In this document: positions 1 to 64,000 of the stretch, in pieces
How the letters are laid out: each line of letters opens with the position of its first letter
How positions within the stretch are numbered: the stretch's first letter is position 1
Source: an uncultured Chloroflexia bacterium
Lineage (GTDB): Bacteria; Chloroflexota; Chloroflexia; Thermomicrobiales; UBA6265
Length of the DNA stretch: 64,000 bases
NCBI GenBank assembly: GCA_963720855.1
Contig: CAVRGV010000005.1
Span: 260,739-324,738 of the forward strand
Direction of reading: 5' to 3'
The notes under the pieces: generated by a model
What the model saw: the letters and a program-made list of their open reading frames with translations, nothing else
Databases searched by the model: none
What the model was told of the DNA's origin: nothing
Position numbers and translations under genes: made by a program

Positions 1-185
1 ACCAGCATGTGGTGATCTGCGTCTACGATGTCTCGAAGTTCGATGGCGCTTTCGTGGTGGATATCCTGCGCACGCACCCAATGGTGCTGGTGGGCGGCAT
101 GCTGCAACTCAATCCCTTCTTCGTGCCGGCAAAGGAATTCCTGGAAGAGCTCAAAGGGCGTCACCGCCCTCGCGCAGATGCGTGA
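1..185 (+). CDS. MEDS-like sensory domain protein, C-terminal fragment (5' end outside window)
   Basis: Frame 3 from the window edge reads QHVVICVYDVSKFDGAFVVDILRTHPMVLVGGMLQLNPFFVPAKEFLEELKGRHRPRADA, stop TGA 183-185. The pattern (CxYD, THP, NP.F.P) resembles the C-terminal half of MEDS domains. It has no start in the window, so it is absent from the ORF track. Confidence 0.45.
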   Translation, partial: QHVVICVYDVSKFDGAFVVDILRTHPMVLVGGMLQLNPFFVPAKEFLEELKGRHRPRADA

Positions 186-1146
186 TATGGAGCAGACGAA
201 GCCAAACCCGACCGGGCTGCCGCTCTGGAACAACGGCGATGATCCCGAGATATCGCGTCGCTGGGCACGGGATTTGGCGGCGTTGCTCGCATTGCCGGCC
301 ATGTGGGTAGATCACGATCCGACCGAAATCGGAACCGGTTTACTGAGCGTCTTGCTCGGAATGCTGAACCTGGAGAGTGCCTACGCTCGCTTCGATGACC
401 CCGCAGGGGGACCGCCACTCGCATGCTGGCGACCGATCGGCGCTGCCATTCCGGTGGAGCTCGAGACGGTGCTTGCCGGAGTCGATGGCGGGGCATCGCA
501 GTCTGTGAATGGGGCGGTGCGAACCGAGGCACGCGGCGCCACCCAGGTCCTGTGCCTGCCGCTGTCACTCCCGCATGGCAACACGCTCCTACTTGCCGCT
601 TCCCGCAACAGCGATTTTCCCACCGATGTGGAGATGCATCTGCTGCGGGTGGCTGTCAGTCAGGCGGTGATCGCGATTTACACGGCGCGTCTCGTGGCCG
701 CCGAGCGCGGTGCCCGCGCGCAAGTGGAAGCAGCACTGGACAAACGGAACGCCTTCATTGCCGCGCTCGCCCAGGATTTGGCATCGATGCTCCCGGTGCT
801 TTCCGGTCGCGCCGAGCAGGGGTTGGCGCTTTTAGCCGAAGAGATCCAGCCTCACACGTCACCGAATGCGCCCCGCTCTCGCGGGGAACGTTTCGCGGTT
901 GTCAGTCAGGTCTCTGCTACGCGCGACTGGACGAATCCCCAGCGGTTGACGCGGCGTGAAGTCGAGGTGATCGGCCTGTTGGCGCAAGGCTTGAGTAACA
1001 AGGAGATTGCGGCCGTGATGTGGCTCAGCGATCGTACGGTCGAACGGCATGTCACCAGTCTCTATCGCAAGATCGGCGTGGCTCGCCGCAGTGAAGCAAC
1101 AGCCTATGCGTTGCGCCACGGTCTTCTCGATGGCGGTACCCACTAA
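178..1146 (+). CDS. LuxR-family transcriptional regulator (GAF-like N-terminus, degenerate DHp-like helix, C-terminal LuxR/GerE HTH)
   Basis: ORF 28..1146 trimmed to ATG 178, which overlaps the upstream stop (ATGCGTGA). C-terminus LTRREVEVIGLLAQGLSNKEIAAVMWLSDRTVERHVTSLYRKIGV is a canonical LuxR HTH. Confidence 0.85.
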   Translation: MRDMEQTKPNPTGLPLWNNGDDPEISRRWARDLAALLALPAMWVDHDPTEIGTGLLSVLLGMLNLESAYARFDDPAGGPPLACWRPIGAAIPVELETVLAGVDGGASQSVNGAVRTEARGATQVLCLPLSLPHGNTLLLAASRNSDFPTDVEMHLLRVAVSQAVIAIYTARLVAAERGARAQVEAALDKRNAFIAALAQDLASMLPVLSGRAEQGLALLAEEIQPHTSPNAPRSRGERFAVVSQVSATRDWTNPQRLTRREVEVIGLLAQGLSNKEIAAVMWLSDRTVERHVTSLYRKIGVARRSEATAYALRHGLLDGGTH

Positions 1147-1368
1147 ACAGGGCCAGTCCGGATTGGGGGATTCCCCTCAATTCACCTTTGCATATCGTTC
1201 GAACAATTGAGAAGTCTTACGGATGCGGCACAGGCGCTCGCCCCCTAACGTGAGGGCACCGGGGAGTCGCCGGACGTTATGAAGTCGCGCTTCGTGGCAC
1301 CCGGCGGCCCTCGGTATCGGCACCCAGATATCCGGCCTGAAGCACCGGGAAGCTGCAAGGAGATTGGC

Positions 1369-2589
1369 ATGACCGCTACGCAAACAACGCAGGATGTCAC
1401 GCAAGCGAACGAGCCGTCGGCTCTACGACCCTTCCACGTGGAGTTTCCGCAGGCGGCACTCGACGATCTAAAGCAACGCGTTTCCAGCACGCAGTGGCCG
1501 GAGCGAGAGCTCGTGGCGGACGCCTCGCAAGGCGTGCAGCTCGCGACGATGCAACAGCTCGCCGACTACTGGGTCGCCGAGCACGACTGGCGACTCGTCG
1601 AAGCGAGATTGAACGCGCTGCCACAGTTCGTGACCGAGATCGATGGGGTCGACATCCATTTCATCCACGTCAAATCACCGCACGCGAACGCCTTGCCGAT
1701 CATCGTCACCCACGGATGGCCCGGATCGATCATCGAGCAATTGAAGATCATCGACCCGCTTGCCAATCCCACCGCGCACGGCGGCAGCGCCGCGGACGCA
1801 TTCGATGTGGTCATTCCCTCTCTCCCGGGGCATGGTTTTTCCGGGACGCCCACGGAGCTCGGCTGGGATCCGATCCGGATTGCCCGCGCCTGGATCGTGC
1901 TGATGAAGCGGCTCGGCTACGACCGCTATGTCGCTCAGGGGGGAGACTGGGGGAACGCGGTCACCGAGCAGATGGCGCTCCTGAAGCCGGATGGACTCTT
2001 GGGAATTCACACCAATATGCCGGCCACGTTGCCTGCCGCTATCTCAGAGGCGCTGCGGCTCGGAACGCAACCCACCGAGCAGCTTTCGGACGAGGAGTCC
2101 GCTGCCTGGACGCAGCTCGACTTCTTCTGGAAGCACGGGCTGGCCTACGCGCAGGAGATGGGCAATCGTCCGCAGACCTTGTATGGGATCGGCGATTCTC
2201 CGATCGGTCTGGCGGCCTGGATGCTCGATCACGATTCGCGGAGCGCTGACCTGATCGCCCGGGTCTTCGCCGGCGCAACGGAAGGGCTGACCCGGGATGA
2301 CATTCTGGACAATGTCACCCTCTACTGGCTGACGAATACCGCGGTTTCCTCGGCACGGCTCTACTGGGAGAGCAAGCTGCCTTTCTTCGATCCCAAGGGG
2401 GTCACGATCCCGGTCGCGATCAGCGTCTTCCCGGACGAGATCTATGCCGCGCCCCGCAGTTGGGCCGAGCAGGCGTATCCTAACTTGATCCACTTCAACC
2501 GGCTCGATCGCGGCGGTCACTTCGCGGCGTGGGAGCAGCCGGAGCTGTTCACCGACGAGCTGCGCGCAGCGTTCCGTCCGCTCCGTTGA
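1369..2589 (+). CDS. epoxide hydrolase (alpha/beta fold with N-terminal EHN domain)
   Basis: ORF 1279..2589 trimmed to ATG 1369, preceded by AAGGAG at 1357-1362. Motifs RPFHVEFPQAALDDLKQRV..WPE and HGWPGS. Confidence 0.88.
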   Translation: MTATQTTQDVTQANEPSALRPFHVEFPQAALDDLKQRVSSTQWPERELVADASQGVQLATMQQLADYWVAEHDWRLVEARLNALPQFVTEIDGVDIHFIHVKSPHANALPIIVTHGWPGSIIEQLKIIDPLANPTAHGGSAADAFDVVIPSLPGHGFSGTPTELGWDPIRIARAWIVLMKRLGYDRYVAQGGDWGNAVTEQMALLKPDGLLGIHTNMPATLPAAISEALRLGTQPTEQLSDEESAAWTQLDFFWKHGLAYAQEMGNRPQTLYGIGDSPIGLAAWMLDHDSRSADLIARVFAGATEGLTRDDILDNVTLYWLTNTAVSSARLYWESKLPFFDPKGVTIPVAISVFPDEIYAAPRSWAEQAYPNLIHFNRLDRGGHFAAWEQPELFTDELRAAFRPLR

Positions 2590-2602
2590 TCCCGAGGTAA
2601 TC

Positions 2603-63458: not shown

Positions 63459-63517
63459 TCGTTCCACCTCGCTTTTTTCGCTACCGGCCGCCTCCGGCCG
63501 AATCGACACGCGGCCGG

Positions 63518-63769
63518 CTATCTTGCTGGCTCGATCGCATTGCAGGAAATGGAGAGCAGGGAAAGCCCGAGTCCATCGAGCCCGTTCAGGACGCCCATGA
63601 GCGCCGCCTGATCGGTCACGTTCCCACGCAGCATGCAGACCGGTCCGGCATCTGACTGCGCATTGATCAGCGAAAGCTCGCTGAGCTGATCCAGCCACGA
63701 TGATTTGACCGGTCCCCGGACCAGTATCTCGCAATGCACCTGTGCTGTCTCACTGCGTCGGGGGGACAT
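63518..63769 (-). CDS. hypothetical small protein
   Basis: ..HCEILVRGPV...MLRGNVTDQAALMGVLNGLDGLGLSLLSISC. The pattern recalls small conserved proteins often found near LuxR regulators. The start is uncertain. Confidence 0.45.
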   Translation of the reverse strand: MSPRRSETAQVHCEILVRGPVKSSWLDQLSELSLINAQSDAGPVCMLRGNVTDQAALMGVLNGLDGLGLSLLSISCNAIEPAR

Positions 63770-63858
63770 CGACCTCACCTGTCTCTTGCCACTTGGCGAT
63801 CGACTCCCACTCATCCTAGCGGAGCGGTTGGCCGTTGGTATCGTCCGGAATGGTGGAA

Positions 63859-64000
63859 TCAGGAGGACGGCGCCGCTTCGAGCAGGCGAATCATCTGCCG
63901 GCGACTCGAAACCCCAAGCTTTGCGTAGATATGCGTGGAGTGACTTTTGACCGTTAGCGGAGAGATGCTGAGCTCGTAGGCGATTTCCTTATAGGAAAGC
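63859..64000 (-). CDS. LuxR-family HTH protein, C-terminal part (5' end outside window)
   Basis: Minus strand reads ..LSYKEIAYELSISPLTVKSHSTHIYAKLGVSSRRQMIRLLEAAPSS, stop at 63859-63861. Confidence 0.8.
   Translation of the reverse strand, partial: LSYKEIAYELSISPLTVKSHSTHIYAKLGVSSRRQMIRLLEAAPSS

Follow-up and report, generated by a model that had tools for sequence, protein, structure and literature searches.

Frame breaks in a 64-kb Thermomicrobiales window are very probably consensus errors of long-read metagenome assembly

Genomes in which a large share of genes is interrupted are known from reductive evolution, where Mycobacterium leprae and recently host-restricted symbionts are pseudogene-rich and where natural genome decay is deletion-biased. 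Broken reading frames also arise during sequencing and assembly. Homopolymer length errors with an excess of deletions are the classical Nanopore and 454 signature, which is unlike what we describe here for a stretch of 64,000 nucleotides (the window, referred to at its full length), and polishing of heterozygous assemblies can render a SNP as both alleles in tandem. Metagenome-assembled genomes (MAGs) from Nanopore reads below about 40x keep frameshift indels (PMC9262707), and soil ONT assemblies are richer in them (PMC13087279). The Microflora Danica long-read study relied on Nanopore-only metaFlye assembly with a single Medaka round, and microdiversity was a reported problem for its soil MAGs (PMC12313526).

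The window contains about 60 to 67 one-base frame changes, and about 20 to 24 of its roughly 55 genes (about 40%) are broken. A first-pass annotation had estimated about 60 one-nucleotide indels, and these are present in the sequence: a codon-usage HMM run over the whole window identified 43 same-strand frame switches within genes, and the total reaches about 67 events once sites visible only in alignments to relatives or paralogues join the HMM set. The large genes that it had named as unbroken (prfC, ABC exporter 1, MFS, sulfatase, Rieske, and mnmA) are likewise uninterrupted ORFs, and several unbroken named proteins are identical to called proteins on one 580,096-bp contig. After frame correction, Pfam domains span the junctions at full length (enolase N and C domains, APH, TauE, and RskA), and every corrected protein runs to its full length and closely resembles its intact homologues. 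Intact proteins of relatives map onto the window in successive frames with abutting query ranges (tblastn). Nonsense substitutions were not seen in the corrected genes, and neither were large deletions or IS elements. The direction of the shifts was strongly skewed, with a net +1 for 36 and a net -1 for 7 of the 43 HMM frame switches (84% +1; binomial P=9e-6). Scans of the window returned no tRNA and no Rfam match. Clean and dirty blocks alternate along the window as follows.

Clean block 1, 1-14,499: about 13 genes from ORFs and the HMM path, comprising a regulator, epoxide hydrolase, hydrolases, serpin, GNAT, mnmA, prfC, ABC exporter 1, and the 5' half of ABC exporter 2; ABC1 and mnmA have no frame-changing gaps against L081
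Serpin, 6,295-6,300: the sole break in clean block 1, splitting the match into query 1-215 and 217-414 in two frames
Dirty block 1, 14,500-17,871: every HMM switch here is net +1, and Pfam domains are full length on the corrected proteins
ABC exporter 2: extra bases at 14,500 and 14,872
Enolase: frame changes at about 16,835, 16,780, 16,650, and 16,071, the N-terminal alternation being seen in two ORF translations
APH-family kinase: frame changes at 17,110, 17,518, 17,688, and 17,871
Clean block 2, 17,957-21,400: PNPOx-like gene, MFS transporter (18,718-20,163), and HxlR regulator (20,292-20,936); exact copies of the proteins of this block are present in the searched protein collection
Dirty block 2, 21,427-25,290: positions good to about 20 nt only, as a close relative is lacking
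Two secreted or hypothetical proteins of dirty block 2: breaks at 21,427, 21,936, 22,070, 22,113, 22,524, and 22,613
Two tandem TauE genes: four changes in 23,270-23,370, resolved against the adjoining paralogue, and one at 24,096
Anti-sigma RskA gene: break region at about 25,166-25,287
Clean block 3, 25,300-37,900: 12.7 kb from ORFs and HMM, with Rieske oxygenase, ABC-2 permease and ATPase, Zn-dependent oxidoreductase, TetR, methyltransferase, and DUF305 genes
Dirty block 3, 37,943-43,840: single extra bases against L084
CDF exporter: 37,943 (-1) and 38,069 (+1); the L084 counterpart is intact at 362 aa
ABC exporter of dirty block 3: 39,264, 39,890, and 40,065; the L084 counterpart is intact at 586 aa, and the pieces are 93-97% identical (tblastn)
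AAA_16/TPR regulator: about 14 or more events in 41,039-43,409; the L084 counterpart is intact at 840 aa
Small membrane protein: break at 43,840
Dirty block 4, 45,788-47,955: from the three-way alignment, with coinciding HMM switches
Penicillin-binding protein 2 (PBP2), 5' two-thirds: private insertions at 45,788, 46,114, 46,778, 47,421, 47,481, 47,675, and 47,750
PBP2-sortase spacer: events at 47,840, 47,906, 47,926, and 47,955
PD40/Tricorn-like gene, plus strand: a break at 49,720 and a burst at 51,246-51,389; intact 872-aa ORF in contig_63144
Beta-lactamase-like gene B, plus strand: 5' end shifted at 51,676
AttH-like gene: one break at about 54,582
Spacer deletion: 55,530
FAD/BBE oxidase: insertions at 56,317 and 56,894; intact 467-aa ORF in both relatives
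CoA-binding gene, minus strand: burst of +1 at 57,797, -1 at 57,833, and +1 at 57,872
Photolyase gene, minus strand: broken by a single extra base at 58,854-58,855; intact 459-aa ORF in contig_63144
Clean block 4, 58,865-64,000: 5' part of photolyase, UvdE, HAD hydrolase, and sulfatase

The spread of these events is far from uniform, as the first-pass annotation had proposed. The index of dispersion was 3.1, 4.3, and 5.6 at 1-, 2-, and 4-kb bins (null about 1), the longest event-free gap of 12.7 kb exceeded the 99.9th percentile of the null (9.5 kb), and 21 of the 66 neighbour distances were below 100 nt vs 6.5 under the null. Both of the hot spots that it had singled out are real, with four frame changes in 23,270-23,370 and the sequence +1, -1, +1 in 57,797-57,872. 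Its further claim, that breaks switch on and off at gene boundaries, was not seen: transitions fall within genes, and spacers are affected too. Broken genes keep clean stretches, such as 945 nt at the start of ABC partner 2, 880 nt at the end of PBP2, and 1.5 kb midway through the PD40 gene. Adjacent genes tend to have their broken or intact state in common (runs test z=-2.5), and the unit of clustering is the multi-gene block together with the sub-100-nt burst, not the single gene. Window-private indels were also found in spacers (47,840-47,955 and 55,530), which hold 5 of the 20 polarised indels at a density at least that in genes. Dirty and clean blocks could not be separated by GC content.

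We used three-way alignments over 10.3 kb to polarise the indels, comparing the window with contig_63144 (about 99% identity once its own error-prone regions are set aside) and an outgroup, contig_4246 (about 83%). Close relatives span 45.2-64 kb only; for dirty blocks 1 and 2, the evidence comes solely from the HMM, from shift direction, and from homologues at a greater distance. Twenty indels in the 10.3 kb were private to the window, all of them 1 nt long, with 17 insertions (85%) and 3 deletions. They stand beside 69 private substitutions on the window branch, vs about 16 indels and 1548 substitutions on the outgroup branch. Coding indels on the outgroup branch were multiples of 3, save for a few 1-nt differences where one assembly's own gene is broken (e.g., 45,871 and 54,582), and the remaining outgroup indels were in spacers. 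Around the CoA-binding burst (57,159-58,201; 1,043 nt) we counted 3 private indels and 0 private substitutions, and the indels of this burst were absent from contig_63144, contig_4246, and two Logan contigs. The photolyase extra base was also checked against the Logan contigs, bringing to four the private indels absent from both. No break was shared between the window and its relative of about 99% identity. These relatives stem from ENA metagenome assemblies bearing Flye-style contig names.

Elsewhere the available relatives are more distant. Among the matches listed in a prfC scan of the genome collection, relatives reached at most 57% identity and showed no synteny. Searching for homologues of in-frame enolase and PBP2 pieces gave no relatives above 92% on long contigs; many enolase fragments occur on long ENA contigs. 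Cluster look-ups found no relative at 90% or more for the MFS, HxlR, permease, methyltransferase, and DUF305 proteins. Because many window proteins have no such relative, dirty blocks 1 and 2 and clean block 3 lie beyond close-strain comparison.

The sister assemblies show the same type of damage at other sites. The 3' part of PBP2, where the ORF of the window is intact, carries 13 private single-base insertions in contig_63144. The sulfatase, also intact in the window, is fragmented there, as is the AttH gene, and an error-rich patch lies at 53.9-55.4 kb. Insertions in contig_63144 concentrate within 3.3 kb of its contig end. In contig_4246, PBP2 is split into 672 and 227 aa. This gene is therefore broken in all three assemblies, at sites that differ.

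The inserted bases themselves were informative. The first-pass annotation had placed nearly all indels in short runs, which was not borne out: from our reading of alignment contexts, only 4 of the 26 exactly localised insertions create a run of at least 3, and the inserted base equals a neighbouring base in 5 of 17 cases vs about 7.5 expected by chance. Its fallback explanation, sequencing or assembly error, is supported, although not in the homopolymer form in which it was offered, as most events are single-base insertions outside homopolymers. Homopolymer placement typifies one error class and does not define artefacts generally. At 10 of 17 sites, the inserted base did match what the outgroup carries at the adjacent position (null 0.089, P=3e-7), a pattern based on 17 sites of which 3 are ambiguous. 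These matches suggest that a single consensus was built from a mixture of strains. The insertions of contig_63144 lack the adjacent-allele pattern (2 of 15).

Selection on the broken genes offers a separate line of evidence. Pooled dN/dS was 0.13 for genes broken in the window and 0.19 for genes intact in both, and the CoA-binding gene combines 3 indels with 0 nonsynonymous and 3 synonymous differences. Core genes are affected within the window, with at least 4 breaks in enolase and at least 5 in PBP2. The first-pass annotation had read in the breaks the pattern of relaxed selection and reductive decay, and had proposed comparing dN/dS of broken and intact genes against a close relative. That comparison reveals no relaxed constraint in the broken set, and the decay reading is further contradicted by the private nature of the indels, the 84% net +1 bias, and the damage to enolase and PBP2.

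Since the indels are private, one nucleotide long, biased toward insertion, unaccompanied by substitutions, indifferent to coding sequence and spacer, and located elsewhere in the sister assemblies, they show the marks of an artefact, and we consider it very probable that the frame breaks are consensus errors of long-read metagenome assembly, not decaying genes. The window is part of a 580-kb contig from an uncultured Thermomicrobiales bacterium, itself apparently a long-read metagenome consensus. The assembler or polisher probably wrote a surplus base, or less often dropped one, in kb-scale stretches and sub-100-nt bursts, and these errors would fragment genes that are otherwise normal and under selective constraint. 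A substantial fraction of the spurious bases look like the second allele of an adjacent SNP, such that the window reads XY where relatives read X or Y; given this form, collapsed reads of two co-occurring strains are the most likely source. Blocks would become dirty where strains differ or depth is poor and stay clean where strains agree. The trigger was probably strain mixture or low depth, and the platform was probably Nanopore with metaFlye and Medaka.

A variant that is still an artefact attributes the breaks to low depth with no strain effect, with stretches of few reads keeping residual errors after polishing. The block size of 2-10 kb is of roughly the same order as typical long-read lengths, and the insertions of contig_63144 lie near its contig end without a two-allele pattern. 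A dependence on coverage has also been reported (PMC9262707). However, many substitutions and deletions would be expected among raw long-read errors, whereas the window has almost pure insertions, and random read error would not be expected to produce the adjacent-allele match at 10 of 17 sites. We regard this variant as possible but the lesser part of the artefact reading; that weight is a share within the reading and does not add to those given to the alternatives below.

Explanations that treat the breaks as biological fare much worse. Real pseudogenes, formed gene by gene where selection is relaxed on the dispensable genes of a reductively decaying lineage, would fit the breakage of about 40% of genes, several with many breaks, the intact genes that adjoin broken ones, and the sharing of state among neighbours, as whole-operon loss could give. 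This origin is nevertheless exceedingly improbable. Broken genes have a dN/dS no higher than intact genes do, which contradicts pseudogenisation; no break is common to the relative of about 99% identity; the private indels, all 1 nt and 85% insertions, run counter to the deletion bias of natural decay; nonsense substitutions, large deletions, and IS elements are missing from the corrected genes; enolase and PBP2 are broken; the density of hits in spacers is no lower than in genes; and bursts place 3-4 events within 100 nt. Very recent mutations in a mutator sub-lineage or polymorphic population, captured by the consensus as genuine +1 insertions, would by their recency explain the absent substitutions and low dN/dS. 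Yet this would require about 60 frameshifts, some of them disrupting essential genes, in a cell whose abundance allowed a 580-kb contig to be assembled. The events fall off homopolymers, unlike those of mismatch-repair defects, the inserted base copies an adjacent alternative allele, which a mutational process would not predict, and two other assemblies have the same damage type at different sites; we consider such an origin highly improbable. Genuine +1 insertions fixed in a soil Thermomicrobiales lineage, for instance through an unusual templated-insertion mutator that duplicates a neighbouring polymorphic base and leaves many very young pseudogenes even among core genes, deserve next to no credence. 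Programmed frameshifting or slippage was rejected, as the dozens of sites run in both directions with no shared motif, include spacers, and are absent from relatives.

If the breaks are consensus errors, about 40% of the window genes would be mis-annotated as pseudogenes or fragments, and any work on this MAG that counts pseudogenes, reconstructs metabolism, or scans dN/dS would be led astray. We see no evidence here for genome decay, and the feature is very probably not real biology. A pattern of +1 insertions outside homopolymers, grouped in kb-scale blocks and often copying the alternative allele at a neighbouring SNP, could diagnose strain-collapse artefacts in long-read metagenome assemblies, and homopolymer-aware fixes alone would not repair such contigs.

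Among known systems, M. leprae and recently host-restricted symbionts resemble the window in having a large fraction of interrupted genes with several frameshifts per gene, but differ from it in their deletion bias, relaxed dN/dS, nonsense mutations, larger deletions, and conserved essential genes. The interrupted ORFs that indel errors leave in Nanopore or PacBio CLR assemblies, and that the IDEEL test measures, are comparable in that one-base indels split normal genes and the damage is assembly-specific and varies along contigs; their textbook form, however, is homopolymer errors, often deletions, whereas the window has mostly non-homopolymer insertions. Collapsed-haplotype or strain consensus artefacts share with the window an extra base that equals the adjacent alternative allele, found here at 10 of 17 sites, and a block-wise arrangement like that of strain divergence.

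The frame breaks are present in the sequence. Good protein sequence turns into out-of-frame, arginine-rich text within long ORFs (e.g., the ABC transporter/CDF ORF at 37,749-39,863), and the enolase is split across two overlapping ORFs. An HMM self-trained on codon usage, with frame-switch penalties, detected 43 same-strand frame switches within genes over the whole window. Frame-corrected translations contain no internal stops, and the corrected proteins match Pfam families at full length across the junctions (Enolase_N 1-130/131 plus Enolase_C, APH 4-237/239, TauE, and RskA_C). 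Intact proteins of relatives align to the window in pieces that abut in the query and change frame from one to the next, as seen for the ABC exporter (query 1-180, 182-239, 241-448, and 450-586; 93-97% identity) and likewise for PBP2, FAD/BBE, AttH, PD40, photolyase, ABC partner 2, and serpin. Sites from the HMM, from nucleotide alignment only, and from tandem-paralogue comparison bring the total to about 67 events, spread over about 20-24 of the roughly 55 genes. The first-pass annotation had reported about 60 breaks in about 24 genes, an observation that was real and well counted, and the six large genes that it named as intact were all unbroken on ORF inspection.

Two tandem paralogue pairs occur in the window, namely two TauE/SafE exporters (22,975-24,454; 43% identical) and two Beta-lactamase2-family genes (51,652-53,422; 46% identical). 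The PD40/Tricorn-like protein (49,002-51,628; 872 aa once corrected) is an internal two-fold repeat with halves 46-54% identical.

The index of dispersion of the breaks was 3.1, 4.3, and 5.6 in 1-, 2-, and 4-kb bins, where random placement gives about 1 and the maximum over 5000 simulations was 1.8-3.4. The longest break-free stretch is 12.7 kb (null 99.9th percentile, 9.5 kb), of the 66 distances between neighbouring breaks 21 are shorter than 100 nt compared with 6.5 expected, and a runs test on gene states (broken or intact) gave z=-2.5. The earlier statistical point, that a uniform error process cannot leave 25 kb clean, was correct (probability under a uniform rate ~3e-13). Because dispersion rises with bin size, the unit of clustering is the multi-gene block rather than the gene, and sub-100-nt bursts are superimposed on this block structure.

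Distribution of frame breaks (window coordinates)
14.5-17.9 kb, dirty block 1
21.4-25.3 kb, dirty block 2
37.9-43.8 kb, dirty block 3
45.8-48.0 kb, dirty block 4
1-14.5 kb, clean block
17.9-21.4 kb, clean block
25.3-37.9 kb, clean block
58.9-64 kb, clean block
23,270-23,370, burst of four changes
51,246-51,389, burst of three or four changes
57,797-57,872, burst of three changes

Transitions between clean and dirty stretches fall inside ABC partner 2, PBP2, and the PD40 gene, so that the proposed switching at gene boundaries was not borne out. The intact acyP beside a broken CoA-binding gene, put forward as an example, is a 270-nt gene adjoining a 75-nt burst.

Cluster look-ups followed by contig look-ups yielded three useful loci.

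Relatives aligned to the window
45,233-64,000, L082/L083/L086, parts of ENA ERZ25039606 contig_63144 (80 kb), ~99% identity outside two patches of contig_63144
37,577-44,337 and 45,233-58,201, L084, ENA ERZ25039476 contig_4246 (1.19 Mb), syntenic, 81-89% identity
7,081-15,561, L081, ERZ25039498 contig_110590, 79-86% identity

Genes broken in the window are unbroken in relatives, including the photolyase (459 aa), CoA-binding (152 aa), FAD/BBE (467 aa), PD40 (872 aa), CDF (362 aa), and ABC (586 aa) genes, the regulator (840 aa), and ABC partner 2 (631 aa). Two further Logan contigs (L087 and L088, ~85% identical) do not share the base gains or losses that the window shows at 58,855, 57,871, 57,832, and 57,795. 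The acylphosphatase (58,026-58,295, 89 aa) is 100% identical at the protein level in L087 and L088, whose DNA is only ~85% identical; every difference is synonymous, a sign that purifying selection on the protein is very strong. Synteny with contig_63144 stops at 45,233 (window 44,340-45,232 against L083 1-1,967), and between the regulator and PBP2 lie a PIN-domain-like ORF (44,641-44,985, minus strand) together with short ORFs that have no assignment. The stretch 44,340-45,232 may be a small strain-specific insertion, e.g., a toxin-antitoxin module.

In contrast, the sulfatase (204 + 93 aa) and the AttH-like gene (134-, 210-, and 87-aa ORFs), both whole in the window, are in pieces in contig_63144. 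The AttH-like gene is broken up by an error-rich 1.5-kb patch of this contig (L082/L083 region, window 53.9-55.4 kb), where private 1-2-nt deletions are numerous and the segment has 156 private substitutions; 54,582 in AttH is a 1-nt difference falling on a break in the gene of one assembly. The other error-rich stretch of contig_63144, no more than 3.3 kb from the contig end, has 13 private single-base insertions (window 45,309-46,504), where the window ORF is intact; the inserted bases in this stretch (L083 1968-3300, window 45,233-46,504) are mostly G/C. In the outgroup contig_4246, PBP2 has a 1-nt break as well. With its own breaks in each assembly, PBP2 (window 45,207-47,815; L084 7,151-9,812; L083 1,886-4,307) is interrupted in all three at differing sites. 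A search with enolase returned many fragments of 230-333 aa (e.g., P0082, P0101, P0103, P0109, and P0120) from ENA/NCBI contigs of 39 kb-3.4 Mb, a hint that core genes split by frameshifts are frequent in public long-read assemblies of this kind, although the listing was possibly length-biased by the search tool.

The pattern had been read as relaxed selection during genome decay, or else as homopolymer error. In a three-way alignment of the window, contig_63144, and contig_4246 (10.3 kb), the window has 20 private indels, each of 1 nt (17 insertions and 3 deletions), and 69 private substitutions; window 57,159-58,201 has three private indels and no private substitutions. Four window-private indels lie in the PBP2-sortase spacer (47,840, 47,906, 47,926, and 47,955) and a further one, also in a spacer, is at 55,530. 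The outgroup branch has 1548 substitutions, and within genes its indels come in multiples of three, the exceptions being a few 1-nt differences that fall on a gene break of one assembly, such as 45,871 at the break in contig_4246's PBP2; the remainder lie in spacers (52.4-52.6, 53.4-53.7, 55.5, and 56.9-57.2 kb). The indel-to-substitution ratio is thus 0.29 on the short window branch, all frameshifting, versus ~0.01 on the long outgroup branch, with indels almost all in-frame or in spacers, a contrast that is not evolutionary in character. Of the 43 switches within genes across the window, 36 are net +1 (P=9e-6), including 8/8 in dirty block 1 and 6/7 HMM-detected switches in dirty block 2, neither of which has a close relative. 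HMM switch points correspond to single extra window bases relative to L081, L083, and L084.

Switch points coinciding with extra window bases
14,500, 14,872, 38,069, 39,264, 39,890, 40,065, 41,237
41,970, 42,649, 46,114, 46,778, 47,421, 47,481

Pseudogene decay in bacteria is deletion-biased in nature. Comparison of the window with contig_63144 gave a Nei-Gojobori dN/dS of 0.13 for four genes broken in the window (42 synonymous and 16 nonsynonymous differences) versus 0.19 for five genes intact in both, a result at odds with relaxed selection; the CoA-binding gene differs by three indels, three synonymous changes, and no nonsynonymous change. Every test that could be run contradicted genome decay. 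The assembly-error alternative stood as to error, while its homopolymer form did not. Nearly all indels had been described as run-length changes, yet only 5 of 17 polarised insertions match a neighbouring base (~7.5 by chance), only 4 of 26 exactly placed insertions form a run of at least 3 as read from alignment contexts, and some interrupt runs (GG[T]GG at 51,676 and CC[G]CC at 56,894). In 10 of 17, the inserted base equals the one that the outgroup has at the aligned site directly beside it, a site at which the close relative differs (chance 0.089 per site, P=3e-7; seven clean and three ambiguous).

Variable sites at which the window carries two alleles in tandem
47,421, TG
47,481, CG
47,955, AC
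51,338 and 56,894, GC
57,872, AT

This adjacent-allele pattern suggests that the window's errors arose largely where reads of two closely related strains disagreed; the consensus would then retain both bases, leaving an extra one. Such strain disagreement would account for the insertion bias and the absence of accompanying substitutions, and also for the blocks, since strain divergence is mosaic. Only 2 of 15 of contig_63144's own insertions show the pattern; the insertions in that contig mostly add a G or C to conserved positions close to its end. Plain low depth may also contribute in the window.

The window has a G+C content of 62%, and tRNA and Rfam scans gave no matches in it. Runs of at least 5 number 64 for G and 21 for C (G/C = 1.11), a G-run surplus beyond the overall G excess, and cumulative GC skew climbs along the whole window irrespective of gene orientation. 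The run asymmetry may be biological (leading strand) or may be a further consensus bias. Several unbroken ORFs are verbatim called proteins of one 580,096-bp contig (NCBI, ENA). At ≥90%, the mnmA protein shares a cluster with proteins labelled Thermomicrobiales by their sources; among the matches listed in a prfC scan of species-representative genomes, the best was 57% (Caldilineales and Dehalococcoidia MAGs). The DNA is accordingly that of an uncultured Chloroflexota/Thermomicrobiales bacterium known through metagenome assembly.

Taken together, we are highly confident that the frame breaks are an assembly artefact rather than a biological feature, of a non-homopolymer and probably strain-collapse kind. 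Confidence stops short of full since the judgement was made on assembled contigs, with a close relative for two of the four dirty blocks. The relatives belong to metagenome assemblies in ENA whose contigs are named "contig_N" in the manner of Flye, a naming shared by Microflora Danica MAG records, and we infer that the window probably comes from that study and platform. Microflora Danica comprises Nanopore-only soil and sediment metagenomes assembled with metaFlye and one Medaka round, and microdiversity is named there as a limiting factor (PMC12313526). Nanopore MAGs below ~40x need short-read polishing against frameshift indels (PMC9262707), and frameshift-truncated proteins are more frequent in ONT soil assemblies than in HiFi assemblies (PMC13087279).
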